Shown here: in pieces, positions 4,665 through 55,733 of the stretch
How the letters are laid out: every line of letters begins with the position of its first letter
How positions within the stretch are numbered: the stretch's first letter is position 1
Assembly (NCBI GenBank): GCA_020848905.1
Contig: JADLHG010000026.1
Span: 17,422-81,421 of the forward strand
Length of the DNA: 64,000 nucleotides
From: Deltaproteobacteria bacterium
GTDB lineage: Bacteria; Myxococcota_A; Polyangia; GCA-2747355; JADLHG01
Direction of reading: 5' to 3'
Translations under genes and position numbers: made by a program
Notes under the pieces: model-generated
What the model was told of the DNA's origin: nothing
Databases searched by the model: none
The model's input: only the letters and a program-made list of their open reading frames with translations

Positions 4665-6653
4665 CTACTTACAGAGGTAGGTGAAGCGATCCGTGTCGGA
4701 CCGCCCGGCGTAGTAGCCCCAGTGACGCGCGAGCAGCCGGCCATCCGGCGCGCGCTCGTACGAGAGCCTCATGGCGTGCGTGGCGTCGGCGGGGGCCCCG
4801 GAGTAGTACGAGGCGAGCTCCCCGGTCGCGTCGTACGAGAACGCGTGGAGCGACCCCGGAGGATAGAGCCGGGACAGGATACGGCCCGCCGCGTCGCGCG
4901 TGCGCTCCTCGAGCAGGTTGCCGTTGCGGTAGATGGCGATGCGCCGGCCACCGGCGGAGAAGCGGCGCTCGTGCAGCACGGGGGGCGGCAGGGTCGCGGG
5001 CAGCTGGCCGAGCCCCTCGGGGATCGCCCCCACCCCGTCGGTCGGCCGCGACGCGATGGCGTGGCGCGCGATCGTGTGCCGCGAGACCTCGGCCCCCTCG
5101 TAGGCCCAGCCGTGCTGCGCCACGAGCACGCCATTCATGCGGTACGCGCGCGTCACGAGCCTCCCGTCGCGGTCGTAGACGAAGGTCAGCGCCGTGACGA
5201 GCCGCTGGCCGTCCCGGTGGAGCAGGCGCACGTCGCTGGCTACGCGCTCGCCGTCCAGCGCGCGGGTGCGTTCGTACGTCACCGAGCCGTCGCTCCCCGA
5301 CAGCCTCTCGGCGACCATGCGGCCGAGCACGTCATAGGCGAGCTCCGCCCGCAGGACGGGCGCATCCCACACCGGGTGCCAGGCCATCCCTTCCACGCGG
5401 TCGTGCCCAAACCATCTATCGATCCCCGTGTCGTAGGCCGGGCCGAACCCGTAGTCGCCATCGAGGCCCGCCGGTCGATCCCCGACGGGCCAGCCCAGGG
5501 CGTAGACGCCGTCCGCCTCCGGGTAGCCGTAGCTCATGGCGTGAGGCAGCGTGGCGCAGCCGCCCGCGGCCGGCCGCTCGGGCCGCGCGGCCGTCCATTC
5601 GCGCTGGTGGAAGGCGGCGACCAGCGGCTCGAGGTCGTCGGAGCCGCGGAGCGCCCCCCCCTCCTGGTAGAGCTTCGGCGCGAGCTCGGTACGGCTCTGC
5701 TGCAGCCGACCGTCGGCCGCGTAGACCCACTCCTGTCGCGCCCACCGGGCTCCGTCCACCGCGCGCTCCACGGCGGTCAGTCGGCCCGCCGCATCGTAGG
5801 TGAAGTCGGCGCTCCCCACGCGCCCCGAATCGCGGTGCGTCACGGTGGAGCGGACGAGGCGATCCCCCCGGTAGCTCCACCGGCGCTCCGTGACGCCGGT
5901 CCGGTTGATACCATCCACGAAGCGCGAGGCCACGAGGCGCGCTCCGTCCCAGGTGTTGGTCCACGTGAACCACAGGGCGCCGCCGAAGTGGTAGCGGTCC
6001 TCGAGCAGGTGCCCGGCCCGGTCGAAGCGCCGTTCCAGGCGTCGCGCGGCGGTCGAGCCGTACTCCATCGCGAGCACCGTCACGTGGAGCTCGCCGGTGG
6101 TCGCGTGGCGCTTCGCGCGGATCGTGCCAGCCCAGCGTTCGCCTTCGAGGTCACCCGGTCTCGAGAAGGCCATCGGCGGTGGACGGTGGGTCCAGGCGCG
6201 GGCCACCGCGGGCAGCTCGACGAAGCAATCCCCGCCATCGCACGAGGTGCTCCCCGGCGCGGCGAAGAGCTCCAGCGGGGTCGGGAAGCCGTCCGTCACC
6301 CCGCCGCTCGTACGGCGCTCGAGGCGGCAGGAGCTCCCCTCGGCGGCACGCACCCAGGCGAGCAGCTCGGGGGCCAGCTCGGACCCCGGGTGCGCCGGTT
6401 GCGGAGCGCAGTAGCCGGTCGCCGCAGAGGGGGTGCCCGGCGGCGCCACTCCGGGAGGCGTCGGGCCCACCCCGGGTGTGGGAGCCGGGGGAAGGTGTTG
6501 CTCAGGGACCTCTGCCCGCGGGTCGCCCGTCTCAGGCAACCCGGGGCGCGAGCACCCCGCACACCAGAGCGACACCCCGAGCAGGGCGGCGCCGACCCCC
6601 GTGCTCCGCCCCACCGACCTACCGCTGTTTCGCGCTTCGCGTGTGTTCGTCAT
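4665..6653 (-). CDS. YD-repeat (RHS-family) lipoprotein
   Basis: Multiple YD repeats (YDAAGRLTAVER, YAADGRLQQSRTE, FVYDRDGRLVTRAYRMNG, SYDATGELASYY). N-terminal lipoprotein signal MTNTREARNSGRSVGRSTGVGAALLGVSLWCAGCS. AT-rich patch upstream. Confidence 0.7.
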   Translation of the reverse strand: MTNTREARNSGRSVGRSTGVGAALLGVSLWCAGCSRPGLPETGDPRAEVPEQHLPPAPTPGVGPTPPGVAPPGTPSAATGYCAPQPAHPGSELAPELLAWVRAAEGSSCRLERRTSGGVTDGFPTPLELFAAPGSTSCDGGDCFVELPAVARAWTHRPPPMAFSRPGDLEGERWAGTIRAKRHATTGELHVTVLAMEYGSTAARRLERRFDRAGHLLEDRYHFGGALWFTWTNTWDGARLVASRFVDGINRTGVTERRWSYRGDRLVRSTVTHRDSGRVGSADFTYDAAGRLTAVERAVDGARWARQEWVYAADGRLQQSRTELAPKLYQEGGALRGSDDLEPLVAAFHQREWTAARPERPAAGGCATLPHAMSYGYPEADGVYALGWPVGDRPAGLDGDYGFGPAYDTGIDRWFGHDRVEGMAWHPVWDAPVLRAELAYDVLGRMVAERLSGSDGSVTYERTRALDGERVASDVRLLHRDGQRLVTALTFVYDRDGRLVTRAYRMNGVLVAQHGWAYEGAEVSRHTIARHAIASRPTDGVGAIPEGLGQLPATLPPPVLHERRFSAGGRRIAIYRNGNLLEERTRDAAGRILSRLYPPGSLHAFSYDATGELASYYSGAPADATHAMRLSYERAPDGRLLARHWGYYAGRSDTDRFTYLCK

Positions 6654-6754
6654 GCACTCGAGGATGACCTCGGTGCATAACATTGGGAAACGCTCTTTTC
6701 GCTACTCAATAATATTGCACGGCCGAACAATGCCGCGGCGGGCGCTACGGCGGA

Positions 6755-7246
6755 CTACTTCAGGCTGTACGGACCGATCGGCATCTTGCTCGAATCGGTG
6801 ACCTTGACCTTCACGTCGAGGAGGTTGCCCAGCATCCAGAGCACCGGGGACGGCATCCAGGTCGCCGCCTTGGCCAGGGTGTTCACCCCGCGGCCGGTCA
6901 CTTCGACGCCGAAGCCGATGGTCCCCGGGAGCCGCACGTACATGGCGCGCCCCTTCCCCTGCTCGGGCTTCGACTCGAGGCCGTAGACGCCTCCGGTGAT
7001 CAGCTTGCCGTTCAAGTGATCCGACTGAAACGCGGCCACCTCCACGCGATAGGCGCGGTAGCCGGCGTGCTCGGCCGCGGCGTTGGCCCGGACGGCCGCC
7101 TTCATCCGCGGCATGAGCGCCTTGGACAGCACCGTGGCCTGGCGCGGGTTCAGGGTCAGAAACAGCCCCCCCTTTGCCTGCGCCGCTCCTGCGAACAGCA
7201 TCGCCGCCGCGATCACTCCGAGTCCGATTCGGCTCGAGGTTTTCAT
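6755..7246 (-). CDS. Hypothetical secreted protein
   Basis: ATG at 7246 gives signal peptide MKTSSRIGLGVIAAAMLFAGAAQA. Protein-like composition. No recognised domain. Confidence 0.5.
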   Translation of the reverse strand: MKTSSRIGLGVIAAAMLFAGAAQAKGGLFLTLNPRQATVLSKALMPRMKAAVRANAAAEHAGYRAYRVEVAAFQSDHLNGKLITGGVYGLESKPEQGKGRAMYVRLPGTIGFGVEVTGRGVNTLAKAATWMPSPVLWMLGNLLDVKVKVTDSSKMPIGPYSLK

Positions 7247-7490
7247 CACACGCCTCCTGACTCCCCGCCTGGCGCGCGTGGCGCCGCGGGCTCGTGGTGG
7301 TGATCCGCTCGCCTGCCGCCAGACCTTGGGCGGCATGCGAGCAGAAGACCCGTCGCTGGTTGATGTCGGAGCCTTGAGCAAGCGGCGTGCCGGCTGCCTT
7401 CGTCGGCGAAGCGCTGGAGATCGTTGCAGGCCGTCGGTAGGGGGGCGGAGAGGAGGCTCTCCGACTTTGGGTGGGTGGCTAGCGCGCGCT

Positions 7491-7525
7491 GGCTAGCAGG
7501 CGATCCCGGCTAGTAGGCGATCCCG
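7491..7525. repeat. Imperfect 17-bp tandem duplication (CTAGCAGGCGATCCCGGC / TAGTAGGCGATCCCGGC) spanning the vWA gene stop codon
   Basis: Direct repeat read in the sequence. The second copy encodes the C-terminal AGIAY-stop. The first copy lies just downstream and would encode AGIAC-stop. Confidence 0.6.
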
Positions 7526-8760
7526 GCCTTCGGGCCTTGCGCCTTCAGCGCCTCGCCCACCTTGTCGTCAAAGGCGTCGCTGCGGACGCTCTTCCGCCGG
7601 GTCTTCAGGTATCCGTCGCGGGCCTTGGCCAGCTTCGCGATCTCCTCCTGGACCTCCTTCCGCTCGCGCGCCACGCGGTCCACGTAGGCCTGCCGCGCCG
7701 GCGCGGGCAGCGCGGCCACCTGCGGCGGGAGCTCTCGCGCCGCCATCCCCCCGAGGGCACGGCCACGCCCGAGCTTGCTCAAGAGGTCGGCGCCGTCGAT
7801 CGCCCCGCGGCGGGCGCGATAGGTCGCGCTCTCGGCCTGCGCCACCTCGTCCATCGACAGATTCGACCGGGCCCGCTCGCGGGCCGCGTCCTTCTCCGCC
7901 CCGCTCCCCGACGGAAGGAGCGTGGCCGAGAGCTTGCGGTTCAGCTCCGCCAGCCGTCGGTCGTGCGGCGTGGCCATCGCCACCATGCCGCCGTCCTGCT
8001 GGATGCTCGCGTACATGCCGCCCGCCACCCGGGCGATACCGCGCCACGCGGTGGCCGTCTCTTCCATCTCGCCACACCGCACGGCGTTGATCACGATCCC
8101 CTTCTGGCTCGCCTCGCGCGCCAGCTCCTTCGAGTAGAGGCCTCCGCGCCCCTCGTGCGGCGGCGCGTCCCCGACGAGGAAGATGAGCCGCAGGACGTCC
8201 TTGCCGTCGCGCCACTGCATGTTGCGGATCGCCTCGGCCAGCGCGCGGTTCACGTGCTCGGGGGTGTCCCCGCCCCCGGCAGCCTCGAAGCCCTGGAGGT
8301 TCTTGTACACGTCGTCCACCTCCTCCGAGAGCGCGTAGCGGCGCGTCACGTACGCGTCCCCCACGTCCCGATAGCCGATGAGGCCGATGCGCACGTGCGG
8401 CTTCGGCTGCCCCGAGAGCACCTGATTGGCGATGGACCAGATCTTCCGCTTCGCCCCGGCGAGGAGCCCCGACATGCTGCCCGTCGTGTCCACCGCGAAG
8501 ACCAGGTCGACCTGCGGGGACTTCTCCTCGGCCACGGGCCTCGGCGGCTCGGGCGCCACCGTCGGGCGCGTGGGCACCACCGGCGGCTTCACCGTGGCCA
8601 CGCGCGGCGGATGCACGGGGTGAGGGTCGACAAGACGCGGGTCCAGCCGGGCCACGAGGGCGCGGTCGCTCCGGCCGGCCAGCGCCAGAGCCACGACGGC
8701 GATGACCCCCGCGAGCGCCATCAACCCGACCGTCACGTTACGTCTACGCTGGGTGGACAT
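7510..8760 (-). CDS. von Willebrand factor type A (vWA) domain protein, membrane-anchored
   Basis: N-terminal TM helix (VGLMALAGVIAVVALALAG). MIDAS motif DLVFAVDTTGSMSG. Typical vWA spacing of downstream T and D residues. Confidence 0.8.
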   Translation of the reverse strand: MSTQRRRNVTVGLMALAGVIAVVALALAGRSDRALVARLDPRLVDPHPVHPPRVATVKPPVVPTRPTVAPEPPRPVAEEKSPQVDLVFAVDTTGSMSGLLAGAKRKIWSIANQVLSGQPKPHVRIGLIGYRDVGDAYVTRRYALSEEVDDVYKNLQGFEAAGGGDTPEHVNRALAEAIRNMQWRDGKDVLRLIFLVGDAPPHEGRGGLYSKELAREASQKGIVINAVRCGEMEETATAWRGIARVAGGMYASIQQDGGMVAMATPHDRRLAELNRKLSATLLPSGSGAEKDAARERARSNLSMDEVAQAESATYRARRGAIDGADLLSKLGRGRALGGMAARELPPQVAALPAPARQAYVDRVARERKEVQEEIAKLAKARDGYLKTRRKSVRSDAFDDKVGEALKAQGPKAGIAY

Positions 8761-8885
8761 GGGACTCTCCTTCGGTTCGTACGAGCGGATGTCCCTAGAA
8801 ACGCGGCTCCCGTCCGATCGATCTACGGCACGTGCACGGGGCCCGCGAGCCCGGCCTTCGGCCTATTAAGCCCTCAGGTTCACGC

Positions 8886-8891
8886 TATAAT
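8886..8891 (+). promoter_or_regulatory. TATAAT -10-like hexamer 8 nt upstream of the kinase ATG. Candidate leaderless promoter.
   Basis: cacgcTATAATcgccggccATG. Only a weak -35 (TTAAGC with a 14-nt spacer). No SD sequence is possible in the 8-nt gap. Confidence 0.3.
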
Positions 8892-8899
8892 CGCCGGCC

Positions 8900-10948
8900 A
8901 TGTCCCGGCGGTGCCTCACCCTCTCGCTCCTCGGCCTCCTTTCGGCCAGCGCCGCCACGGCCCTGCTCTTCACCCTCTGCCTGCCGCTCCTGGTCTCGCT
9001 CCCCGCGGCGAGCTGGACCGGCGTCCCCCTCTGGGGCGTCCTCTCCCCCATGGCCGCCGGACTGGCCGGCGCCGCGGTGCTCCTCGCCGGCCACCGGGGC
9101 CTCCGCCGCGGCGTGCGCGCCGAGCACCTCGGGAACCTGCCGGGCCAGGTCGTGCTCGCTTTCGGAGTCGCCGCCACCACGACCCTCTTCCTCGGCGCGC
9201 TCATCGAGCGCGATGCGCTCCTCCGACACCGCCCGCTCGGGATCTTCCTCTCCGGACCCGCGCTCGTGCTGAGCGTGACCACCCTGCTGCGCCCGATCCT
9301 CCGCGTGCCGCTCGTGGCGGAGATGAACCGCCTGCTGGCGACGAGCCGCCGACCGCGGCGAGCCGAGGCCGACGGCAGCCCGTCCAGCGCCGCACCGGAG
9401 CCCGCCCCGTCCACCTCGCGCGGGCTCTTCCGCAGGTCGAGCCTCGCCGTGCTGGCCATCACGCCGGCCCTCACCGTCTCGGCGCTCGCCCTGGCCGGCG
9501 TCTCGTGGACCTTGATCGGAGTCCACAGCTACTACCACGTGCTCTCGAACGAGGAGCAGATGGCGCGCGGGCACCTCTCCACCCTGCTGCACACGGTGCA
9601 GGTCCAGCTCCAGCGGCTCCCGCACGCCAAGCATCGCGGCTTCGTCGAGACGCTCCCCGCCGCGCGCCAGGGGCAGGTGGTCCTGCTCGACGAGGACGGC
9701 CGCGTGCTGTCGCGCCGTTCGGGCCTCGACCCGCGGATCCCCCTCGAGCAGCGCGGCGAGCGCTGCCGCCAGGCCGAGCAGCAGTGGCGGTGCGCCGTCG
9801 AACCAGCCCCGGGCAATCGCCGGATCGCCGCCCTGCAGGCCCCGTCGCTTCCCGACGCCGAGGTCGCCGCCACCGACATCGGTCCGGCGCTCGTCCTCCT
9901 CGCGCTCGGATTCCTCCTCTTCGCCGGGATGCTCGGCCGCGCCGTCGGACAGGACGCCTCGCGCGACTTCCGCACCGTCACGCAGCAGCTCTACGCCATG
10001 GCCCGCGAGGACCAGCCCGACCTGGGACGCCCGCTCGCGGTGACCTCGCTGGACGAGGTCGGCGAGCTCGTGGCCGCCGTCGGCAAGCTGCGGACCCGCC
10101 TCGGCGCGGAGCTCGAGGCCTACCGCGACTCGGTCCGCAAGACGGCCGAGGCCGAGCGCATGAAGAACCAGTTCCTTTCCGACGTGAGCCACGAGCTCCG
10201 CACCCCGCTCAACTCGCTCTGCGGTCACGCGCAGCTTCTTCTCGAGGGGATCGAAGGTCCTCTGTCGACCGCCCAGCGTGAGGACATCCGCTCGATCTCG
10301 AAGGGGGGACAGCAGCTCCTCGCGCTGATGACCGACGTCCTGGACCTGTCGGTGATCGAGTCCGGAAAGCTCACCCTCAAGACCGAGAAGGTGGACCTGG
10401 CCCGCCTCTGCCGCGACATCGCGGAGGGCCAGCGATCGGTGCTGCGCGCCGCCGCGAAGGAGGGCCCCCCGAAGGTGCAGCTCGAGCTCGACCTCGCCGA
10501 GGAGCTGCCCGAGGTGGTGGCCGATCCGCGCCGCATCCAGCAGGTCCTGCTCAATCTGGTGAGCAACGCCATCAAGTTCACCACCGAGGGGTCGGTCACA
10601 CTGCGCGCCCGGCGCGAGGGCCCGGACCTCGTGCGCCTCGAGGTGGAAGACACGGGCACGGGGATCGGAGCCACCGACCTGCCGCGCGTCTTCGAGGAGT
10701 ACCGTCAGGCGGGCACGCTGCGGTCGAAGCGCAAGGGGACCGGCCTCGGGCTCGCGATCTGCCGCCGCCTCGTGGAGCTCCATGGTGGGCAGATTTCCGC
10801 CGAGAGCGAGATAGACCGGGGCTCGCGCTTCACGGTGCTCCTGCGCGTCGCCGGCCCCCCGCTGGCGGCGTCGTCCCGACCAGGCGGCGGAAGCGACCCG
10901 CGAGGGAGCCGCCCCGAAGGGAGCACCCCGGGAGGCAGCGCGCCGTGA
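8900..10948 (+). CDS. Sensor histidine kinase (multi-TM sensor region, HisKA + HATPase_c)
   Basis: H-box [17 protein letters not shown]1 and G2 boxes ([37 protein letters not shown]). Several N-terminal TM helices. Confidence 0.85.
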
Positions 10949-12858
10949 CCCGCGTCTACTTCGCGATGGGGTCGCTCCGCCTGCGGCTCATCCTGGGCGT
11001 GACCATCGGGACCGCCGTGCTCGGCGTCACCGAACTCGCGGGGGGCCAGCGCCTGCTCGGCCTCTCCCCGCTGCAGCTCCAGCAGCAGACGCTCACCTGG
11101 GGGGTCTACGCCACCTTCTTCGTGCTGGTCCTGTCGGCCTACGTCATGACCTACCTAAGGGGTGTCGCGCGCTTTCTCTCCCGCGTGCGCGACGAGGAAG
11201 GGCTCGAGATCCCCGCCGCAGAGAGCGCCGCGGTCCGCCGCACGGTGCTGCGCTTCCCCGTGGACTTCGTCCTCGTCGGCATGGGGCTCGCCACCTTCCT
11301 CACGGCGAGCAAGATCCCCCTCGACGTGCTGGTCTTCGACCTTCCGGCCGGAGCCGCAGTGGGGCTCGCCACCGGCACCGCCACGCTGACCCTCGCGGCG
11401 GGAGTGCTCTTCTACCTCGTGACGCGCGGCTGGATGCGCCCGCTGCTGGCCCACTTCCGGCACGAGGAGGTCCCCGAGGCCTCGCGCATCCCCGTGACCG
11501 GCAAGGTGGCCTTCGCGCTCGTGACCCTCGGCCTGGCCTCGACGGTCCCGACGGCGGTGATCGGGGCCGGCCGGATCCTGAGCCTCGAGCAGCAGAGCGC
11601 CGAGCGCTACGGGCAGCACCTGGCCGACACGCTGGCCCACGGCTCCTCCTGGCTCGCCGAGGACTCCTGGAAGGAAGCCCTGGCGGCCGCGCGACTCCCG
11701 GGCCGTCAGGTGCGTCTCGGGGACCGCCCCACCGCCGCGAGCGCCCCGCTCGTCCCCGGCCACGGGGCCTCCTTTCTGCAGCTCACGACGCTCGAGCCCT
11801 CCCATGCGCCCGCCGGCGAGCTTTCGGTGCTCGTGGTGCTGGCCACGCTGCTCCTCGGCGTGGCGGTCTTCGTCGGACGCAACCTCGGGCTAAGCCTGAG
11901 TCAGGACATCCGGTCGGTGACCCAGCGCATCTCGCTCCTGGCGCAGGGACCGCAGGCCGACGCCGAGCCGACGCCGAAGGGGCTCTCGCCGCTCGTCGCC
12001 GGGGCGCCGCAGTTCAGCGACCTGCGCGAGCTGACCAGCGCGGTGAACGCCCTCCTCTCGCGCATCACCTCGATCCACGTGGCGCACTTCGTCGCGGTGG
12101 AGCGCACACTCGAGGCGGACCAGCTTCGCACGCAGTTTCTCGCCAACATGAGTCACGATCTGCGCAGTCCCCTGAACTCGATCCTCGGCTTCGCGGAGCT
12201 CCTGCTGCAGGGGATGGAGGGGGAGCTCCCCCCCGCGCAGCACCAGGCGATCGAGACCATCCACCGCAACGGCACCGAGCTACTGCACCTGGTGAACGAG
12301 GTGCTGGAGTCGGCGAAGCTCGAGGCGGGGCGGCTGGCGCTGCACCGCGAGGACATGCCGCCGGCGGAGCTCCTCTCGGCCGCGCTCAAGGAGGCGCATT
12401 CCCGCGGCGTGCCCGCCGGAGTCGAGCTCTCCTCGGAGCTCCAGGCCGGGCTGCCGGTGCTCTTCGTCGACGGCCCGCGCCTGGCCGAGGCGCTGGCCTA
12501 CCTCGTGACCTACGCCGCCCAGGCGCTGCAAAACGGACGGATCCAGGTGCGCGTGCGCGCCACACCGCCGGCGGGCGAGACGCGCATCACCGAACAGCGC
12601 CTCACGCTCCAGCTCGTCGTGGCCGACGACGGGCCGGGCCTCTCCGAGGAGGAGAAGGAGCACCTCTTCTCGGGCTTCCGCCGCCGCCCCGGGCAGCGCG
12701 GCCTGAACCTCGGGCTCCCGCTCGCGCGCGCGCTCATCGAGCTCCACGGCGGAACGCTCGCCGTCTACAGCGCCGCGGGGCAAGGGACCACCTTCATGGC
12801 CAGCGTACCGGTTCAGGCCCGCCGCATGTCGGGCCGCTTTCGGCCCGTAAGGGTCTGA
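10945..12858 (+). CDS. Sensor histidine kinase (membrane, HisKA + HATPase_c)
   Basis: H-box [18 protein letters not shown]-binding motifs ([28 protein letters not shown]). The GTG start overlaps the upstream TGA (GTGA). Confidence 0.85.
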
Positions 12859-12869
12859 GCGCGGGCCGC

Positions 12870-13868
12870 GTGGTATACTGCCCCGACGAGACGCCATCCG
12901 TGATTCCCCAGGCGAAGCAGAGCGCGGCGGTCTCTCCCGCCGTGGTGCAGCGGATCGAGCAGGCGGTGGAGCGCGCGGTGCGCGGCAAGCGCGAGGTGGT
13001 GCGCCTGCTCCTCGCCGCGCTCTTCGCCCGCGGCCACGTGCTCATCGAGGACGTCCCCGGGGTGGGCAAGACCACGCTGGCGCGGGCGCTGGCCGCCTGC
13101 CTCGGCGGGACCTTCCGACGCATCCAGTTCACCTCGGACCTCCTCCCGTCGGACATCCTCGGGGTGAACGTCTATCGCGCCGAATCGGGGGCGTTCGAGT
13201 TCAAGCCGGGGCCGATCTTCGCCCACGTCGTGCTGGCCGACGAGATCAACCGCACCACGCCGCGCACGCAGAGCTCGTTGATGGAGGCCCTGAACGAGGG
13301 GCAGGTCACAGTGGATAATCACACCTACCCGCTCGAGTCGCCGTTCCTCGTCATCGCCACGCAGAACCCGGTCGAGCACTTCGGCACCTATCCGCTCCCC
13401 GAGTCGCAGATGGATCGGTTCCTCCTGCGCGTCACCATGGGCTACCCGGCCCACGACGACGAGCGGCGGCTGATCGCGGAGGGGGGTGGCCTCGACGCGG
13501 TGGCGAGCCTCGAGCCGGTGGTCACGCTCGACCAGGTGCGCGCCATGCAGGAGGTCGTGGATCAGGTGCGCGTGGATCCGGCGCTCCTCGACTACGTGAT
13601 GACGGTGGTGGCGGAGACGCGGCGCTCTCCGCACCTGGCGCTGGGGGTGAGCACCCGCGGGGCCATCGCCTGGTATCGCGCGGCGCAGGCCTTCGCGCTC
13701 GTGCAGGGACGCGACTACTGCGTCCCCGACGACGTGAAGCAGCTCGCGCCGAGCGTCCTCGCGCACCGGGTGATCCTCTCCGGGCAGCAGGAGGCGCTGG
13801 CGCAAGGGCGCGACGAGGCCGAGCAGGTGATCGCCGAGCTCCTGGCTCGCCTCCCCGTCCCTCTGTGA
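12870..13868 (+). CDS. MoxR-family AAA+ ATPase
   Basis: Walker [13 protein letters not shown]. Walker [25 protein letters not shown]. Typical MoxR length. An alternative GTG start is at 12900. Confidence 0.85.
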
Positions 13869-13899
13869 TCGCCCCGCCCACCGAGCCCACGGAAAGGCC

Positions 13900-14958
13900 G
13901 TGAAGCCCCGCTACCGCGCCCCCCGGCTGCGCTTCACCCGCGAGGGGAAGTACTTCGTCCTGCTGACCCTCGGCATCGGCTTCGCAGCGATCAACACCGG
14001 CAACAACCTCCTCTACCTCGTCCTCGGCATGCTGCTCTCGCTGATCGTGGGGAGCGGCGTCCTCTCCGAGCTCGGCCTCCTCGGGCTCTCCGCCCGGCGC
14101 AGGTTCCCGAGGCGCGTCTACGCGGGACGGCCGGTCCTCGCCACGGTGACGCTCGAGAACACGAAGCGTCGCCTCCCCTCCTTCTCCGTCGAGGTCCAGG
14201 ACCTGCTCGAGGGCCGGCCCCTCGACAAGAAGTGCTACTTCCTCAAGGTCCCGGCCCGCCGTTCGCAGGAGACCTCGTACCGCCACACCTTCCCGCGTCG
14301 AGGGGCCTACACGCTCACCGAGCTCGTACTCGGCACGCGCTTCCCCTTCGCGCTCTTCTTCAAGAGCTATAGGCACCACGCGCCGCTCGAGCTGGTCGTC
14401 TACCCCGCCGTGGAGCCGCTCTCGCCCGAGGAGCGCGGCGCCCGCGAGGGAGACGACAGGCTCGGCGTGCGGCTGGCCCGCCGGGGCGAGTTCCACGCCC
14501 TGCGCGAGTACCGCACCGGCGACGACCCGCGAGAGATTCACTGGCGCAAGAGCGCCCGCCTCGGTCGCCCCTTCGTGCGCCAGCACGAGGAACCGACCGG
14601 ACAGCGGCTGATGATCCTGCTCGACAACGGCGTCGATCGAGCTGCGCTCGGCGCCGAGGAGCTCGAGGCGCAAGAGCGCGCCGTGGTGCGCGCCGCCTCG
14701 CTCGCCACGCACTACCTCGAGCGAGGCTACGCCGTGGGGCTCGCCACCCGCACGGGGAGCGTGCCCCTCGGCTCCGGGCCTGGGCAGCTCGACCACCTCC
14801 TGCGCGCGCTCGCGCTCCTCGCCTTCGTCCCGGCCGAGGCCCCCCTCACGCCTCCGTCGCGCTTCTCCGGCGAGACGATCCTCGTGCGCCCCGGCCCCCC
14901 CTCGACCGCGCGCCCCTCTGCCGCGCCCCCCTCCGCGGCGGCCGGAGGGTCCCGCTGA
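13900..14958 (+). CDS. DUF58-family protein (MoxR partner, vWA-like)
   Basis: N-terminal TM pair. Signature [19 protein letters not shown] typical of DUF58. Lies immediately downstream of MoxR. Confidence 0.75.
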
Positions 14959-17180
14959 TGCGCTTCTCCTCGCTCCACAAGCTCTGCGCCTACCTCACGG
15001 TCGGCAGCGCCCTGGCGGCGGTGCTCCTCAGCCCGGAGCTCTCCCCCGCCGCGCGCCTCCTCCCCCCGCTCGCCCTCCTCCTGAGCTGGTTCGCCGAGCC
15101 CCCGCGCTGGCCCACGGCACGCCTCGCCGCGGCCTGGAACGTGGCCACGCTCGTCTTTCTGCTCGTGCAAGGGGCGCAGGTCCTCTCGGGCGCTCCGCTG
15201 ATCGAGGCCGGGGTGCACTTTCTGCTCGCAGTGCTGGTGAACAAGCTCTTCAACCGACGCACGAGCAAGGACTACCAGCAGCTCTACGTGGTGAGCCTCC
15301 TGCTCCTCGTGGCAGGCACGGTGCTCAACACGAGCCTCTCGTACGCCGTCTGCTTCGTGCTCTACGTCGTCTTCGCCACCTGGGCGCTGATCCTCTTCCA
15401 CCTGCGGCGCGAGATGGAGGAGAACTACCTCCTCAAGCACGGCGAGGACGAACGCAGCGAGCGCGTGGACGTGGAGCGCATCTTCGCCTCGCGACGAATC
15501 GTCGGCCCGGGGTTTCTCGCCGGCACCTCCCTCATCTCGCTCGTGATCCTCCTCGGCTCGGTGCTCCTCTTCACCTTCTTCCCGCGCGTGGGCTTCGGCC
15601 TCTTCTTCGGCCAGAAGCGCGGCGGCGTGATGATGGCCGGCTTTCGCGAGCAGGTGGCCCTCGGGCAGCACGGCACGGTGCGCGACAACCCGAAGGTCGT
15701 CATGCGGATCGTCTTCCCGGAGGGGAAGCGGCCGCCGCTCCTCTATTTCCGCGGGTCGGTCTACGACGCCTACCGCGACGGGACCTGGAGCCACGGCGCG
15801 GGGCTCGCCGGCACGACCGTGCCGATCGCGCCGACGGAAGGGCTCTACCTCGTGAACCCGGCTCCAGGCCTCCCCGCCGAGCCGCCCCCGCGCCTGGTTC
15901 GCGAGCGGCTCCTCCGGCAGGAGGTGTACCTCGAGCCGCTCGACTCGACGGTGCTCTTCGGCGCCGACCGCCCCGTGGCGGTCGAGGTGCCGCGTCCCCC
16001 CGGCGGGCTGCGTCCCCCTTTCCTGCCGCGCCGCGGCCCGCATGGCGAGCTCCGCGCCGACCGCGTGCGCACCGCCGGCGTGCACTACGTCGTCTTCTCG
16101 CAGCCGAAGCGCCCCGCGGCGCCGCTCCTCCGCTCGGCAGAAGCGCTCGAGGGCCCCCGCCTCGCGCGGTTTCTGCGCCTGCCCCCGGAGCTTCCCGAGC
16201 GGGTTCGCGCCCTCGGTCGCCGCCTCGTGGCAAGCGATCGCACGGTCTACGACAAGGTGCTCGCCGTCCAGCGCTACCTGACGACGAACTACCGCTACAC
16301 CCTGGCGCTCCAGCACCAGCCCGGACGCGAGCCGGTGGACGAGTTTCTCTTCGAGACCCGCCAGGGACACTGCGAGTACTTCGCCTCGGCCTTTGCCGTG
16401 CTCCTGCGTGCGGGCGGGGTCCACGCGCGCAACGTGAACGGCTTCGCCGGCGGGGAGTGGAACGGCTACGGCAAGTACCTCGCCGTGCGCGAGGGGGACG
16501 CGCACGCCTGGACCGAGGTGCTCTTTCCGAACGTGGGGTGGGTGGCCTTCGACGCCACGCCGACGGGGGCCGTGGCGCGCCCCGCCCCAGCCGGCTTCCT
16601 GAACAGCGTGACCCAGCTCCTCGATACGCTGCGCCTGCGCTGGTTCCGTTACGTGGTCGAGTACGACCTCGGCAAGCAGGTGGCCCTCTTCCGCCGCGCC
16701 GAGCGCCTCGTCAGCGGCCGCGGAGCGAAGCGCGAGGGGAGCTCGTGGTTTGCGCGCCACCGCAGGCTCCTCCTTGGTGCCGGAGGCGCGGCACTGGCCT
16801 GCCTCCTTGTCGTCGTGGCGTGGCGGCGGCGCAGGCGGCGCGGCTCCGACCCCGTGCGCGGCGAGGCCCGCGGCAGACCCCACCCCGCGGCGCAGCTCTA
16901 TCGCCGGGCCACGGCGCTCCTCACGCGGGCGGGCCGCACGCGCCCGGAGAGCGTCACCCCGCGAGAGTTCGCACGCGCGCTCGCCGAACAGCGCTTCCCG
17001 GCGGCGCCGCTGGTGGGGGACGTGACGGACTGCTACTATCGGGCCCGCTTCTCGCCGGTGCAGGGTGCGCGCGCCGAGCTCGAGACGCTGAGCCGGCTCG
17101 TCGGACAGCTCGAGCTCGCCCTGCGCGAGGCTGCGAGCGCCCCCGCGGCGGGTCCACGGAGCGCAAGGAGGGATCGATGA
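14958..17180 (+). CDS. Transglutaminase-like domain membrane protein (DUF3488-TGase-DUF4129 type)
   Basis: TGase core GHCEYFASAFAVLLRAGGVHARNVNGF...HAWTEVLFPNVGWVAFDATP (Cys-His-Asp). Multiple N-terminal TM helices. The ATG overlaps the upstream stop (TGATG). Confidence 0.8.
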   Translation: MRFSSLHKLCAYLTVGSALAAVLLSPELSPAARLLPPLALLLSWFAEPPRWPTARLAAAWNVATLVFLLVQGAQVLSGAPLIEAGVHFLLAVLVNKLFNRRTSKDYQQLYVVSLLLLVAGTVLNTSLSYAVCFVLYVVFATWALILFHLRREMEENYLLKHGEDERSERVDVERIFASRRIVGPGFLAGTSLISLVILLGSVLLFTFFPRVGFGLFFGQKRGGVMMAGFREQVALGQHGTVRDNPKVVMRIVFPEGKRPPLLYFRGSVYDAYRDGTWSHGAGLAGTTVPIAPTEGLYLVNPAPGLPAEPPPRLVRERLLRQEVYLEPLDSTVLFGADRPVAVEVPRPPGGLRPPFLPRRGPHGELRADRVRTAGVHYVVFSQPKRPAAPLLRSAEALEGPRLARFLRLPPELPERVRALGRRLVASDRTVYDKVLAVQRYLTTNYRYTLALQHQPGREPVDEFLFETRQGHCEYFASAFAVLLRAGGVHARNVNGFAGGEWNGYGKYLAVREGDAHAWTEVLFPNVGWVAFDATPTGAVARPAPAGFLNSVTQLLDTLRLRWFRYVVEYDLGKQVALFRRAERLVSGRGAKREGSSWFARHRRLLLGAGGAALACLLVVVAWRRRRRRGSDPVRGEARGRPHPAAQLYRRATALLTRAGRTRPESVTPREFARALAEQRFPAAPLVGDVTDCYYRARFSPVQGARAELETLSRLVGQLELALREAASAPAAGPRSARRDR

Positions 17181-18193
17181 GCTATCGCGTCGCCGTCGTC
17201 GGAGCCACGGGAGCCGTGGGCCACGAGATGCTGGAGGTGCTCTGGCAGCGCCGCTTCCCGGTGCGAGAGATCGTCGCGCTGGCCTCCGCCCGCTCGGCCG
17301 GCAAGAGCGTCCGCTTCGGGGACCGCGAGCTCCCCGTCGAAGTGCTCGGCCGGGACAGCTTCCGCGGCGTGCAGGTCGCCCTCTTCTCACCGGGCGCGTC
17401 GGTGAGCCGTGAGTTCGCTCCCCTCGCCGCCCAGGCCGGCGCGAAGGTGGTGGACAACACGAGCGCCTTCCGCATGGACCCTGACGTGCCGCTCGTGGTC
17501 CCCGAGGTGAACGGCGACGAGGCCCTCGCCTGCCCGCGGGGGATCATCGCCAACCCCAATTGCTCCACCATCCAGATGGTCGTGGCGCTCGACCCCCTCC
17601 GCAAGGCGGCCGGGCTCCGGCGCATCGTCGTCTCTACCTATCAGGCGGTGGCCGGCGCGGGCCAGAAGGCGATGGAAGAGCTCCAGCAGCAGATGACCGC
17701 GTGGGCCAGCGGCGCGACGCAACCTGCGCCGAAGGTCTTCCCCCACCCGATCCTGATGGAATGCATTCCGCAGATCGGCGACTTCCTCCCCGACGGAGAC
17801 AGCGTCGAGGAGCAGAAGATGGTCAAGGAGACGCAGAAGATCTTCGGCCTGCCGAACCTGCGCGTGAGCGCGACCACCGTGCGCGTGCCGGTGCTCATCG
17901 GGCACAGCGAGTCGGTCAACGTCGAACTCGAGCGACCGCTCTCGGCGGCCGAGGCCCGGGCGCTCCTCGCCGAGGCCCCGGGGGTCACGCTGATCGACGA
18001 CCCTGCGGCCCGAAAGTATCCCCTGGCGCGGCTCGCCGCCGGCACCGACCCGGTGTACGTGGGGCGCGTCCGGCGTGACCCGTCGGTCGAGCACGGGCTG
18101 AACCTCTGGGTCGTCTCCGACAACCTGCGCAAGGGCGCCGCGCTCAACGCGGTCCAGATCGCCGAGCACCTCGCCGCAGCAGGGGCGCTGTAG
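17177..18193 (+). CDS. asd: Aspartate-semialdehyde dehydrogenase
   Basis: MSYRVAVVGATGAVGHEM NAD-binding N-terminus. Active site ANPNCSTIQMVVAL. The ATG overlaps the upstream TGA. RBS AAGGAGGG. Confidence 0.9.
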   Translation: MSYRVAVVGATGAVGHEMLEVLWQRRFPVREIVALASARSAGKSVRFGDRELPVEVLGRDSFRGVQVALFSPGASVSREFAPLAAQAGAKVVDNTSAFRMDPDVPLVVPEVNGDEALACPRGIIANPNCSTIQMVVALDPLRKAAGLRRIVVSTYQAVAGAGQKAMEELQQQMTAWASGATQPAPKVFPHPILMECIPQIGDFLPDGDSVEEQKMVKETQKIFGLPNLRVSATTVRVPVLIGHSESVNVELERPLSAAEARALLAEAPGVTLIDDPAARKYPLARLAAGTDPVYVGRVRRDPSVEHGLNLWVVSDNLRKGAALNAVQIAEHLAAAGAL

Positions 18194-18365: not shown

Positions 18366-19658
18366 ATGCCGCGTACGTTCCGCTCTCCTCGTCGTGTGGG
18401 GTTTCTCCTCGCGTGGGCCGCCCTCCTGCTTGCGCCGTCGGCCGCCCATGGGGCCTTCGCGGTCCGCGCCATCGAGCTCGACGACGCGGACGGCCGCATC
18501 GCCACCTCGAAGCTCCTCGAATACTTCAACCTGGCCCGCTGCCGCTGCGACCACCCGGTCAAGGTGATCGTGCGCATCACCCCCGACCTGGCGGCCAAGG
18601 GGCGCCTGCGCATCGTGAGCGGTCAGAGCTGCCTGACCACCACCGACAACAAGATCAAGCCCGAGTGCCGCGTGCTCTTCGCCGGCAAACTCAACGAGCA
18701 GCGCACCGATCTCTTCATCGACACCTCGGCCGCGCAGCTCATGACGAAGAGCGGCGGCTCGTGCGAGGCCAGCGAGGAGCTGGACTACACCATCTCGGTC
18801 TTCACCGACGTCGACGACGAGAAGTGGACCGAGAACGCGAGCAAGCTGACCTACTCCGTGGACACCAAGCGCCCCGTGGCCCCTTCGGCCGCGAAGAACA
18901 GCGACGGGACGACCCGAGCGCCCGAGGCGGGGGAGAGTCTGGTCAAGGTGAGCTTCGAGCAGCCGACCACCTCCGCCGAGAAGAACGTGAAGTACCAGCT
19001 CCTCTGCGAGCGCGTGAAGGACGGCCAGCCGGTGCTCGCGAGCCCTCCGGGGGCGGAGTACAAGACCCGGGCGTTGCTCAAGCAGTGCCGAGGGAGCGCC
19101 ACGACGAGCGACGGCGGCAGCCCGAGGGCCGACAGCCGCGCAGCCGACGCGGCGCCCCGCGATGGCGGCGTCGCGGAGGCCGGCACGAAGGAGGCGGGAG
19201 CCACCGAGGCCGGCCCCCGAGACGCGGGGACCCCCGACCAGGCAGCGCTCTCGCCGGACGCGAGCAGCTCGCTCCCCACCGGGATCGCCGAGCTGGACCC
19301 CCGCTATATCTGCTCCGCGGGCTTCCAGTCGGCCGGCAGCTACGACATCGCCGGCCTCGAGAACGGCCTGGCCTACCGCTTCTACGTGGTGTCGATCGAC
19401 CAGCGGGGCAACCCGAGCCTCCCGGCCGAGCTCGGTGAAGCCACGCCGCACCTCGAGGAGGACCTCTGGGAGCGCTACAAACGAAAGGGCGGTCAGGCCG
19501 AGGGGTGCGCGGTGAGCGAAGGACGCGGCGGGGCCCGACAGACCGTCGTCTCGGTGGCTTCGCTGCTCCTCGCGAGCCTCGTCCTCGGCGGCGTCTGGCT
19601 GGCACGACGCACCACCCGGCGACGCCGCGCCGGCGCCGCGAAGAAGGACGCGCCATGA
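18366..19658 (+). CDS. Secreted protein with a C-terminal MYXO-CTERM-like sorting signal
   Basis: Signal peptide MPRTFRSPRRVGFLLAWAALLLAPSAAHG. The C-terminus GGQAEGCAVSEGRGGARQ-TVVSVASLLLASLVLGGVWLA-RRTTRRRR has the Cys, Gly-rich, TM, basic-tail layout of MYXO-CTERM. Confidence 0.65.
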   Translation: MPRTFRSPRRVGFLLAWAALLLAPSAAHGAFAVRAIELDDADGRIATSKLLEYFNLARCRCDHPVKVIVRITPDLAAKGRLRIVSGQSCLTTTDNKIKPECRVLFAGKLNEQRTDLFIDTSAAQLMTKSGGSCEASEELDYTISVFTDVDDEKWTENASKLTYSVDTKRPVAPSAAKNSDGTTRAPEAGESLVKVSFEQPTTSAEKNVKYQLLCERVKDGQPVLASPPGAEYKTRALLKQCRGSATTSDGGSPRADSRAADAAPRDGGVAEAGTKEAGATEAGPRDAGTPDQAALSPDASSSLPTGIAELDPRYICSAGFQSAGSYDIAGLENGLAYRFYVVSIDQRGNPSLPAELGEATPHLEEDLWERYKRKGGQAEGCAVSEGRGGARQTVVSVASLLLASLVLGGVWLARRTTRRRRAGAAKKDAP

Positions 19659-20407
19659 TCTCGAGGATCGCGCTTTGCGCCCTCGCCGTGGGGCTGGTCG
19701 GGTCTCGGACCGCTCCGGTCCACGCCGCCGAGAAGAACGGCGAACCGAGCTACGCCAGCCCGCAGCACTTCGCCGTGGAGTTCAAGCTCGGCCCCTACGC
19801 CCCGAACATCGACAGCGAGTTCGGCGGCAGCGCCACCCCCTTCAAGGACATCTTCGGGGACGGCACGGGGCTCATGATCCGCGGCGAGCTCGACTACCAG
19901 TTCTGGGGCGGCTTCGGGAGCATCGGCGCGGGGCTCCAGCTCGGCTACTACGGCAAGTCGGCGCAGGCGCTGCAGGACACGGGCTCGGGCGGCGGCACGG
20001 CGGCCTCGGCCGGCGAGACGGGCATCACCCTCTTTCCGATCTCGCTCCTCGCGGTCTACCGCTTCGACGTGCTGGCCAAGCGCTTCAAGGTCCCGCTCGT
20101 CCCCTTCGCCAAGTTCGGCCTGAACTACACGCGCTGGTGGATCTTCAAGGGAGACGGCGGCGTGGCCAGCTTCGAGGGACACAAGGCCGCCGGCGGCACC
20201 TTCGGCTGGCAGGTGAACCTCGGCGGCGCCTTGCTCCTCGACATCTTCGAGCCCAGCGCCGCCAAGAACCTGGACAACGAGCTCGGCATCAACCACACGT
20301 ACCTCTTCTTCGAGTTTCAGCACATCGCCTCGGACGGCCTCGGCGCGAAGCACGCGCTGCGCGTGGGGGCCACGACCTGGCAGGCAGGCCTGGCGTTCGA
20401 ATTCTAG
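19655..20407 (+). CDS. Outer-membrane beta-barrel protein (OmpA-like 8-strand barrel type), secreted
   Basis: Signal peptide MISRIALCALAVGLVGSRTAPVHA. Alternating amphipathic strands. Terminal aromatic residue (…GLAFEF). ATGA overlap with the upstream gene. Confidence 0.6.
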   Translation: MISRIALCALAVGLVGSRTAPVHAAEKNGEPSYASPQHFAVEFKLGPYAPNIDSEFGGSATPFKDIFGDGTGLMIRGELDYQFWGGFGSIGAGLQLGYYGKSAQALQDTGSGGGTAASAGETGITLFPISLLAVYRFDVLAKRFKVPLVPFAKFGLNYTRWWIFKGDGGVASFEGHKAAGGTFGWQVNLGGALLLDIFEPSAAKNLDNELGINHTYLFFEFQHIASDGLGAKHALRVGATTWQAGLAFEF

Positions 20408-23317: not shown

Positions 23318-23853
23318 TCCCTCTCCTCCCCCGCGAGCAACCGGGCCCGCAGGTGACTCAGCCGATCCGCGAACACGAGGTCGATGCGTCGCGCCGCGCC
23401 GGCCCGATCCCGGATCGGCTGCCCGAGGAGCGCATCCGACGGACGCGACAGCGAGCTCGGCGCGCGTACCGGGGCCTCGCGCAGCGGCGCGGTGGCCGCC
23501 GGCATCGGCGCCTCGGCACGCTTGGACATCATCAGGCCCACGTTCAGCGCCACGAGCAGGGTCGCGGCGAGGGCGATCCCTCCCCCGAGCTTCAGCCCGA
23601 AACGCCGCCGCGCCGGGGTCGCCGCGCGCCGCTCGGCCACGGCCTGCTCCACGAGCGCCACCTTGCGCTCCTTCGGGAGCCGCTCCTCTCGCACCGAGGC
23701 CCGCAGCATCTCCGCCGCGGCCCGCAGGTCGCGCTGCTCGGGGCGCGGCGCCTCGCTCCCGTCGAGGCTCTGCCCGAAGGCCCGGGCTTGCTCGAGTTCT
23801 TCCTCGGTGGGCGGCGCCTCGTCCTCCGGCCACGATCCGTCCCGACCACTCAT
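23314..23853 (-). CDS. Putative anti-sigma factor (single-pass membrane protein)
   Basis: Lies immediately downstream of an ECF sigma with an ATGA overlap. Central TM helix GGIALAATLLVALNVGLMM. Confidence 0.55.
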   Translation of the reverse strand: MSGRDGSWPEDEAPPTEEELEQARAFGQSLDGSEAPRPEQRDLRAAAEMLRASVREERLPKERKVALVEQAVAERRAATPARRRFGLKLGGGIALAATLLVALNVGLMMSKRAEAPMPAATAPLREAPVRAPSSLSRPSDALLGQPIRDRAGAARRIDLVFADRLSHLRARLLAGEERE

Positions 23854-24476
23854 GGCTCACCAAATCCCTTGCGGAAGGCCTGCACGGCGCGAAAGAGCAC
23901 CACGTCGAAGGTCCCGAGCGTGACCTCCAGCAGCTTGGCACACTCCTCTCGAGGCCTCTCCTCGAGCAGGCGCAGCTCGATCGCCCGCCGGTAGCGCGGA
24001 TTCAACCCCGCCAGCGCCTCCGCGACGCGCGTCGCGTTCAGGCGGCGCTCCTCCTCCACCAGCAGCGCGTCCTCCGGCCCCGACGGCCCCGCGCTCATCG
24101 TCGCGGGCTCCGGCTCGGCCGCCACGCGATCCGCGAGCCGCCGCCGCCGCTGCGTGGCCCGGTGATGGTCCACGACTTTGTGCACCGCGATCTGCCGCAT
24201 CCAGAAATAGATGCTCCGCCCTTGCCAGACGAACGTAGACAGCTTCTCGATGGCTGTGACCATGGTCGCCTTCAGCAGGTCCTCCGCGGTCGCCCGATCG
24301 CCCACCCGCGGCAGAATCACGCGCGCGAAGAGCGCCTCGGCCTGCTGCCCGAGCAGCGTGCGCAAGGCCTCGGGGTCCCCGCGCTGCGCCCGCCGCACGA
24401 GCGCCTCCTCGAGCGACGCGACCTCCGTCCCCGCGCCGGGCGCCCCGCTGGCCTCTGCACCCTCGGATCGAGTCAC
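23850..24476 (-). CDS. RNA polymerase ECF-type sigma factor
   Basis: Sigma-70 region 2 (EDLLKATMVTAIEKLSTF...) and region 4 (RRAIELRLLEERPREECAKLLEVTLGTFDVVLFRAVQAFR). Confidence 0.8.
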   Translation of the reverse strand: MTRSEGAEASGAPGAGTEVASLEEALVRRAQRGDPEALRTLLGQQAEALFARVILPRVGDRATAEDLLKATMVTAIEKLSTFVWQGRSIYFWMRQIAVHKVVDHHRATQRRRRLADRVAAEPEPATMSAGPSGPEDALLVEEERRLNATRVAEALAGLNPRYRRAIELRLLEERPREECAKLLEVTLGTFDVVLFRAVQAFRKGFGEP

Positions 24477-55108: not shown

Positions 55109-55132
55109 CGCAGTGCCTGCTAACGTAGCGGC

Positions 55133-55726: not shown

Positions 55727-55733
55727 GCGGCCC

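Follow-up and report, generated by a model that had tools for sequence, protein, structure and literature searches.

We analyzed a stretch of 64,000 nucleotides (hereafter the window; GC content 72%) from a Polyangia metagenome-assembled genome (MAG; assembly GCA_020848905.1, contig JADLHG010000026.1), whose closest relatives were Myxococcota-type MAGs. Our subject is a pair of tandem genes for membrane histidine kinases, designated HK1 and HK2, which lie directly upstream of genes for a MoxR-family AAA+ ATPase, a DUF58 protein and a TgpA-type transglutaminase-like protein. A first-pass annotation of the sequence had described a minus-strand vWA gene facing the two kinases, followed by the MoxR, DUF58 and transglutaminase-like genes and asd. 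Pfam searches confirmed this string, with all seven genes at the positions and on the strands listed in Table 1. The same order recurred in many independent contigs, which places the arrangement above chance. In the NCBI annotation of the source MAG, the lengths of HK1 and HK2 were unchanged, and P0121 and P0001 matched at 100% identity over 100% of the query. Exact-sequence look-ups of HK2 and P0001 gave no match, and genomic context was taken from homologues instead.

The genes of the string are tightly packed. Direct reading of the sequence verified the previously noted overlaps, i.e., GTGA (4 nt) at the HK1/HK2 junction, TGATG (1 nt) between DUF58 and TgpA, and ATGA between TgpA and asd. 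It also showed that the HK2 stop codon is separated from the GTG start of MoxR by 11 nt, and not 12 nt as first reported. MoxR and DUF58 are 31 nt apart, and the two genes that follow asd, which code for an FN3-like surface protein and an outer-membrane (OM) beta-barrel, again overlap by ATGA (the barrel start codon was read directly). No terminator-like site was found in the junctions from HK1 through asd; six terminator-like hits were all located outside them, and Rfam and tRNA scans revealed nothing relevant in the region. Because of the tight junctions and the lack of intergenic terminator-like sites, the string from HK1 to asd, behind which the FN3-like and OM-barrel genes lie, is probably co-transcribed. 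In the intergenic region between vWA and HK1, a consensus promoter scan detected no full -35/-10 pair. A perfect TATAAT hexamer is present at 8885-8890, 9 nt upstream of the HK1 ATG, and from the position of this putative promoter the HK1 transcript could be leaderless or begin only a few nucleotides before the start codon.

Each kinase has about six predicted transmembrane (TM) segments and an extracytoplasmic loop of 85-120 residues preceding the last of them, and the two sensor regions are distinct from each other. The cytoplasmic halves of HK1 and HK2 are only 32% identical, and thus the proteins are old paralogues. In HK1, the loop comprises approximately 120 residues and a HAMP-like linker is present. 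The predicted loop contains a C-x8-C motif (9761-9790, residues ~288-297), which is kept in nearly all family members and may form a disulfide hairpin or a redox-sensitive element. The HK2 loop is small, with an alpha/beta fold (AlphaFold2 model of HK2, pLDDT 78). At the C-terminus of HK2 (12832-12858), orthologues from the same clade share the tail GR(L/F)RPV(K/Q/R/A)V-COOH, which reads SGRFRPVRV in the window; this tail could be a docking peptide.

Both proteins possess an H-box with an acceptor His, SHELRTP (His431) in HK1 and SHDLRSP (His404) in HK2. They differ in the ATP-binding site. HK1 has canonical motifs throughout, including the N box (N552/N556/K559), G1 (D584-T-G-x-G) and G2 (G613-x-G-L-G-L). 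In HK2, Tyr occupies both Asn positions of the N box, which an alignment with the solved kinase 7z8n confirmed. Its ATP lid has lost 4 residues and its G2 sequence is GLNLGL, although a G1-like DDGPG remains. HisKA kinases need the N-box Asn to bind Mg-ATP and to be active as kinases. The full set of N-box Asn, G1, G2 and ATP lid was therefore found in HK1 and not in HK2, and from its motifs HK2 is classed here as a putative pseudokinase-type member of the HisKA kinases. The kinase cores resembled those of hybrid and phosphorelay kinases such as TorS, HrmK and BarA, yet scored far below the cutoffs of those models.

To follow these motifs through the family, we aligned the cores of ten HK1/HK2 pairs and scored the motif positions of about 100 sequences. 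HK1 relatives were collected with the N-terminal 400 residues, a full-length word-indexed search having been swamped by generic kinase cores; an exhaustive search among 1.84 billion representatives yielded only 19 clusters with this sensor family. A metagenome scan with the HK2 alignment, which also matches generic H-box patterns, gave about 15 true HK2-type proteins among the 80 loci listed. Counts below refer to clusters and loci, not to independent evolutionary events. Among approximately 75 HK2-type sequences, SHDL[R/K]SP was present in all, while the position corresponding to the Mg-binding N556 of HK1 was never Asn (Y, F, H, W or S) and G1 was decayed in most. The 4-residue deletion in the ATP lid occurred in all ten aligned HK2 cores, and many HK2 orthologues had lost the Pfam HATPase_c match altogether.

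HK1-type proteins showed the reciprocal pattern. Their N, G1 and G2 motifs were canonical throughout (27 sequences that include the N box, and 18 cluster representatives), and the acceptor His was replaced in 7 of the 18 representatives (H 11, Q 3, R 2, V 2). The acceptor position is A, A and E in the loci L003, L008 and L088, respectively. Wherever a His-less HK1 had a readable neighbor, a His-bearing HK2 followed (L001, L003, L008, L088 and L168), including in an AT-richer lineage in which the genes again overlap by 4 nt. HK1 was located directly upstream of HK2 in every locus with both ends visible, and the two were never found apart in the loci examined. The 4-nt overlap itself was read in the window, L001, L002, L004, the P0010 contig, L167 and L168.

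The loss of the acceptor His from many HK1-type proteins and of ATP-site motifs from the HK2 type suggests that the two form one heteromeric, or split, kinase, in which the catalytic domain of HK1 phosphorylates the His of HK2. We assign this reading a probability of roughly 0.6. Kinases without His that keep their ATP-binding motifs under selection need an external acceptor, and since an invariant His is encoded next door, HK2 is the obvious candidate. We infer both heteromer formation and trans-phosphorylation from this complementary motif loss. In such a scheme, anciently duplicated paralogues would share out the labor of one histidine kinase. HK1 would be the catalytic half, with a canonical ATP-binding domain and an own His that is dispensable in many relatives. 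HK2 would be the phospho-acceptor half, with an invariant His and a catalytic domain not expected to bind Mg-ATP. The two would associate through their DHp helices and HK1 would phosphorylate His404 of HK2 in trans, and phosphorylated HK2 would then serve as phosphoryl donor for a response regulator whose gene lies elsewhere. With two polytopic partners, each carrying its own extracytoplasmic loop, two inputs could be integrated. It is established that a His-less subunit and an ATP-site mutant subunit of the same dimer can complement one another in trans, as reported for EnvZ and NtrB.

Several points weigh against the split-kinase reading, and some of them favor a different one, namely that HK1 and HK2 are two independent orphan homodimeric kinases with their own regulators elsewhere, which adjoin each other through an old tandem duplication. 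HK1 of the window retains His431 and HK2 retains the DxGxG-like G1 (DDGPG); HK1 could work alone here, and HK2 might bind residual nucleotide or could instead be a phosphatase or modulator. No response regulator for the pair emerged from the receiver-domain search described below. In addition, the A/A/E and the V/V acceptor variants probably represent one clade, so that the counts above are not counts of independent events. Independence of the two kinases would also agree with the low identity of their cytoplasmic cores, the distinct sensor region on each and the abundance of orphan kinases in the phylum (PMC12471899). However, HK2 would then have to use a non-canonical nucleotide site or be purely a phosphatase, and three observations would be left unexplained: the loss of the HK1 His in about 40% of family clusters with perfect ATP motifs, the loss of the N-box Asn in every HK2, and the constant adjacency of the two genes, often with a 4-nt overlap. 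We therefore consider two independent kinases unlikely. The complementary loss of function likewise contradicts a reading of the two cognate-looking kinases of the initial description as equivalents, or as a relay, and suggests a single heteromeric kinase instead. A purely inhibitory, RetS-like role of HK2 was considered as the main model and rejected, as it leaves His-less HK1 proteins with intact ATP motifs unexplained.

Division of labor among kinases has precedents. In Rhodobacter sphaeroides, CheA3 and CheA4 carry the catalytic and phospho-acceptor domains on separate polypeptides; catalysis and acceptor are likewise split there, but these proteins belong to a different kinase class from the HisKA pair of the window. 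GacS and RetS form kinase heteromers in which RetS inhibits GacS, needing neither its own His nor ATP binding, and DivL is a pseudokinase which has Tyr instead of His and keeps the fold. The top PDB sequence matches to HK2 included both RetS and DivL. To our knowledge, none of these systems shows a reciprocal pattern within one tandem HisKA pair.

A closer parallel is offered by FasB and FasC of group A Streptococcus, an experimentally supported case of tandem kinases that form a heteromer instead of homodimers. FasC, a proposed pseudokinase, can do without its kinase domain; the FasB kinase domain is proposed to phosphorylate H246 of FasC, and the authors call such heteromers rare (PMC12675982). 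In both systems the kinase genes lie in tandem, and the kinase domain of one partner is either dispensable or degenerate while its His is kept. At the sequence level, the features of such a system that we found in the window were the GTGA-coupled genes, the degenerate catalytic domain of HK2 and its invariant His. The Fas system occurs in a different phylum, and we claim no sequence orthology to Fas proteins; the likeness is one of arrangement and motifs. Unlike FasBC, both partners in the window are sensors with about six TM segments, and the decay of motifs is complementary and family-wide, the catalytic partner losing its His outright in many lineages. Moreover, the FasBCAX locus encodes its own regulator, FasA, and a small RNA effector, whereas the pair in the window has no regulator nearby.

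A search for receiver domains (phmmer with the CheY, OmpR and NtrC receivers) detected none in any open reading frame of at least 70 residues in the window, while the positive control was detected. Within 10 kb on either side of nine related loci, none was found except an NtrC protein in L002, which is paired with its own kinase and served as the positive control. Thus, the adjacent cognate response regulator expected for a canonical HisKA kinase is absent, in agreement with the first-pass annotation. That annotation had also regarded the arrangement as non-standard, in part for this reason; we do not follow it here, because over half of the response regulators of Myxococcus xanthus are orphans (>50%; PMC12471899) and the lack of an adjacent regulator is accordingly unremarkable. 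Proteins containing a receiver (REC) domain occur near more distant HK pairs (L086, L133 and L166), which gives only a hint as to output.

Table 1. Features of the window and of related loci discussed in the text
Feature	Locus	Coordinates	Strand	Evidence or remarks
672-aa protein	window	4665-6683	-	Weak YD/RHS repeat matches; between sigma-like and vWA genes
208-aa protein	window	6755-7381	-	No family; between sigma-like and vWA genes
Membrane-anchored vWA protein, 416 aa	window	7510-8760	-	Pfam VWA_4 2.2e-10, VWA 2.9e-07; 1 TM (residues 9-27)
Divergent intergenic region, 139 bp	window	8761-8899		Direct sequence reading
HK1, 682 aa	window	8900-10948	+	HAMP-like; Pfam HisKA 1.1e-16, HATPase_c 1e-29 (103.6 bits)
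HK2, 637 aa	window	10945-12858	+	Pfam HisKA, HATPase_c (only 66 bits)
MoxR-family AAA+ ATPase, 332 aa	window	12870-13868	+	Pfam AAA_3 9.8e-62, AAA_lid_2 2.7e-23
DUF58 protein, 352 aa	window	13900-14958	+	Pfam DUF58 7e-16; N-terminal TM (residues 37-55)
TgpA-type polytopic transglutaminase-like protein, 740 aa	window	14958-17180	+	Pfam TgpA_N 1.8e-38, Transglut_core 1.2e-26, C-terminal DUF4129 8.9e-10
asd (aspartate-semialdehyde dehydrogenase, housekeeping)	window	17177-18193	+	Pfam; NCBIfam PRK14874 2.4e-142 (474 bits)
Secreted FN3-fold surface protein, SgmI (MXAN_2561)-like	window	18366-19658	+	Signal peptide, MYXO-CTERM-like tail, NCBIfam, AlphaFold2 and Foldseek
MXAN_2562-family OM beta-barrel	window	19655-20407	+	NCBIfam NF040596 6.3e-69 (231.8 bits; cutoff 100)
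Second extracytoplasmic function (ECF) sigma factor	window	23850-24476	-	
Zinc-ribbon, Ser/Thr protein kinase and AAA_16 protein, 882 aa	window	30441-33089	-	STAND-like
ECF sigma factor and adjoining zf-HC2 anti-sigma factor	window	55124-56156	+	
FG-GAP protein gene by HK pair	L001	4814-7714	-	
FG-GAP protein gene by HK pair	L002	4918-7740	-	
FG-GAP protein gene by HK pair	L004	4713-7553	-	
FG-GAP protein gene by HK pair	L166	4677-8789	+	
FG-GAP protein gene by HK pair	L169	4953-7673	-	
O-methyltransferase before MoxR	L005	12062-12706		Methyltransf_3
O-methyltransferase before MoxR	L043	6801-7577		Methyltransf_3
O-methyltransferase before MoxR	L049	7235-7963		Methyltransf_3
O-methyltransferase before MoxR	L059	6905-7963		Methyltransf_3
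O-methyltransferase before MoxR	L167	15699-16343		Methyltransf_3
Solitary TgpA	L006	8850-11057		46% identity; Polyangia MAG

The three genes downstream of the pair form a module of their own. DUF58 is the usual vWA-fold partner of MoxR. In TgpA, the triad Cys472-His516-Asp532 is intact and invariant in the TgpA alignment, and the predicted TM profile would allow the core to be extracytoplasmic, flanked by a TM segment at ~186-204 and another at 604-622. The collinear order MoxR-DUF58-TgpA was observed in 35 related loci, as expected for a TgpA-type module. The closest TgpA in the GTDB representatives (L006) is solitary, with no upstream MoxR or DUF58. Bat (BatA-E) aerotolerance-type MoxR operons of Bacteroides, Borrelia and Leptospira have MoxR and DUF58 beside membrane vWA proteins, a feature shared with the window. 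However, the third gene here is TgpA and not BatA or BatB, and the sole vWA gene is divergent and located 5' of the kinases. No TPR match that would indicate a BatC-like gene was found among the open reading frames scanned, and no BatD/E-like gene was seen; the genes that follow MoxR and DUF58 are TgpA, asd, FN3-like and OM-barrel genes instead of BatA/BatB and BatC. A Bat-type case is that of BB0172 and BB0173 in Borrelia (PMC5700661). The earlier label "Bat-like" is thus imprecise, and the module is better described as a TgpA-type MoxR module such as PA2875 (MoxR)-PA2874 (DUF58)-PA2873 (TgpA) of Pseudomonas aeruginosa, which has the same gene order and domain architectures. The latter genes form one transcript, and their TgpA, which resides in the inner membrane and exposes its transglutaminase domain to the periplasm, is essential (PMC3507681). 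No kinase genes are described for the P. aeruginosa cluster (PMC3507681), whereas in the window the HK pair lies before the trio, and asd, FN3-like and OM-barrel genes come after it.

The first-pass annotation had proposed that the co-occurrence of the kinases with this module be tested, and had taken an absence of conserved linkage in relatives as evidence against its proposal. We found, to the contrary, that the linkage is conserved in relatives. It is located directly upstream of MoxR-DUF58-TgpA in nine loci (the window, L001, L002, L003, L004, the P0010 contig, L008, L088 and L090) and 0.7-4.4 kb upstream of MoxR in five Nannocystaceae-type loci (L005, L043, L049, L059 and L167). Cultured carriers of the pair exist in the Nannocystis / Enhygromyxa group. 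The Nannocystaceae-type loci always have an O-methyltransferase gene directly before MoxR, and often an aminotransferase gene after HK2. The linkage is nevertheless limited to certain lineages: in the GTDB species representatives, 27 loci combine a collinear MoxR-DUF58-TgpA trio with 4.5 kb or more of upstream sequence, and the pair was present at only 4 of them. The link between the pair and MoxR is therefore conserved but lineage-limited and not obligatory.

Such a distribution raises the possibility that the adjacency is inherited synteny without functional coupling, and that the pair signals to an unrelated regulon while the module acts independently. Besides the scarcity of the pair among the representative loci, the genes that flank this site (TetR-ETF, where ETF denotes electron transfer flavoprotein, and aminotransferase) are retained in Kofleriaceae and Polyangiaceae, which lack the pair there. 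For example, in the Kofleriaceae locus L010 the order TetR-ETF-ETF directly precedes MoxR, whereas L003 has TetR-ETF-ETF-hydrolase-HK1-HK2-MoxR, and hence gain or loss of the pair has occurred within a block that is conserved in other respects. As this block also holds housekeeping genes (ETF, asd, truA and a CDP-alcohol transferase), adjacency alone is weak evidence of shared function; asd itself lies 3' of TgpA in L001, L002 and the P0010 contig, but L003 and L004 do not have it in this place. L167 has two opposite-strand genes between the pair and MoxR. More distant HK pairs (L107, L133 and L166) are not accompanied by MoxR and adjoin ruvB/pgk, a REC-GAF-PAS gene or an FG-GAP gene. In addition, PA2875-PA2874-tgpA of P. 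aeruginosa has been described as its own transcription unit (PMC3507681). On the other hand, the spacing between HK2 and MoxR is very tight in the clade of the window (11 nt in the window and 46-85 nt in its relatives), the junction has no terminator-like site, and the pair is likely co-transcribed with the module in this clade. The neighborhood also survives a drop in MoxR identity to the window from 74% down to 47%, and at 47-50% (L005, L043 and L049) the flanks are otherwise different; some of the linked loci have entirely different flanks. A kinase is found together with FN3, MoxR, DUF58 and a transglutaminase in an independent phylum as well, in the PFNA cluster discussed below, where it phosphorylates MoxR (PMC8430577). 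Synteny without coupling is, in our estimation, only slightly short of an even chance.

The PFNA cluster of bifidobacteria has the order pkb2-fn3-aaa-atp-duf58-tgm, and its kinase Pkb2 was reported to phosphorylate MoxR (PMC8430577, PMC6803598). It shares a part list with the window: a membrane sensor kinase, an FN3 surface protein, MoxR, DUF58 and a transglutaminase-like membrane protein. The differences are also clear. PFNA has a single Ser/Thr kinase and the window a histidine-kinase pair, the gene order differs, and between the FN3 proteins only the fold class is shared. The PFNA host is Gram-positive and has neither an OM barrel nor MYXO-CTERM, while the window has both (the tail being MYXO-CTERM-like). 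No counterpart of Pkb2 is present in the cluster, the one Ser/Thr kinase of the window being 13 kb away. By analogy, the shared part list keeps the idea of functional coupling alive.

The FN3 assignment was examined further. The protein starts with a signal peptide and ends in a Gly-Cys, TM and Arg-rich tail resembling MYXO-CTERM, and its C-terminal region matched the NCBIfam MXAN_2561 family at 2.7e-15, below the model cutoff. It had no Pfam FN3 match, and the fold derives from a moderate-confidence AlphaFold2 model (pLDDT 67), for which the top Foldseek matches in PDB were tandem FN3 domains (E values 4e-7 to 1e-5). The gene is kept 3' of TgpA in L001, L003, L004, L008 and L088, and together with the OM-barrel gene in several relatives. 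SgmI is an FN3 cell-surface protein linked to social motility, and MXAN_2562 is co-transcribed with its gene (bioRxiv 10.64898/2026.08.28.747804). M. xanthus probably lacks the synteny described here 5' of sgmI, because MXAN_2558 is an RlpA-type lytic transglycosylase (PMC11444678).

Other putative surface proteins are encoded next to the pair. The vWA protein begins with MSTQRRR, and beyond its single TM segment it is predicted to be extracytoplasmic, with a MIDAS-like motif (DTTGS). L001 and L002 carry orthologues with 57-58% identity 5' of their kinase pairs, and on the P0010 contig a gene with a Pfam vWA match is similarly placed; this placement is conserved only in the clade of the window, often beside a large FG-GAP protein, as in L001 and L002. 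Large FG-GAP (integrin-alpha-like) proteins adjoin HK1-HK2 pairs in several loci; these include the distant pairs of L166 and L169, and distant pairs without MoxR. An FG-GAP protein is a possible extracellular, integrin-like partner of the sensor. No FG-GAP homologue was found in the window. We considered whether the 672-aa protein encoded near vWA corresponds to the FG-GAP protein of relatives and rejected this, as there was no BLAST similarity at 1e-8 and only weak YD/RHS matches.

A more direct alternative is that the pair acts on the envelope module itself, in a PFNA-like manner, rather than via a classical regulator, either by sensing the TgpA/FN3/vWA surface machinery or by regulating MoxR-DUF58-TgpA through membrane contacts or non-canonical phosphorylation. 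This would fit with the same part set in bifidobacteria, in which Pkb2 phosphorylates MoxR (PMC8430577), with the supported FN3 fold of the downstream protein, with the recurrence of secreted vWA and FG-GAP proteins beside the pair (L001, L002, L004, L166 and L169) and with the lack of a nearby receiver domain in the ten loci tested, save for the L002 NtrC with its own kinase. However, with its invariant HisKA H-box HK2 would be expected to carry out ordinary His-to-Asp transfer, and the linkage is missing from most MoxR-DUF58-TgpA loci. Nor are histidine kinases known to phosphorylate AAA+ ATPases. Direct action on the module thus appears improbable. A broader proposal, in which HK1 and HK2 represent a hitherto undescribed Myxococcota family of obligate two-gene split membrane kinases that operates as a two-input AND gate and is a dedicated sensor of a MoxR-DUF58-TgpA-FN3 surface module, i.e., a Gram-negative counterpart of PFNA, is put forward here tentatively and strikes us as doubtful.

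With regard to the wider surroundings, the minus strand on the 5' side of the pair encodes two M16 peptidases, a weakly matching sigma-70-region-2 protein and the 672-aa and 208-aa proteins; neither of the latter two had a homologue in related loci at 1e-8 (BLAST). Downstream of asd, the FN3-like and OM-barrel genes are followed by truA and a CDP-alcohol phosphatidyltransferase gene. Farther away, a STAND-like protein contains the only Ser/Thr kinase seen in the window, and there are two ECF sigma factors, one with an adjoining anti-sigma factor. Either sigma factor could be an alternative regulatory output in the neighborhood.

The complementary decay of HK1 and HK2, in which the His of HK1 is lost in about 40% of family clusters and the N-box Asn of HK2 in every member, is the main new result of this analysis and was not seen in the first-pass annotation. 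Textbooks present histidine kinases as homodimers. Few obligate heteromers occur naturally, and FasBC was not described until 2025 (PMC12675982). The function of MoxR-DUF58-TgpA is obscure although tgpA is essential in P. aeruginosa, and a lineage that packs this module with a sensor and an FN3 protein would offer a handle on the stimulus of the module; this is the weaker part of our case. For the kinases themselves, comparative sequence data alone provide a clean and falsifiable case of a split kinase. If it is correct, the pair would represent a natural system for trans-phosphorylation and for signal integration by two different sensor domains, and it would caution against counting such gene pairs as two independent kinases in genome surveys.

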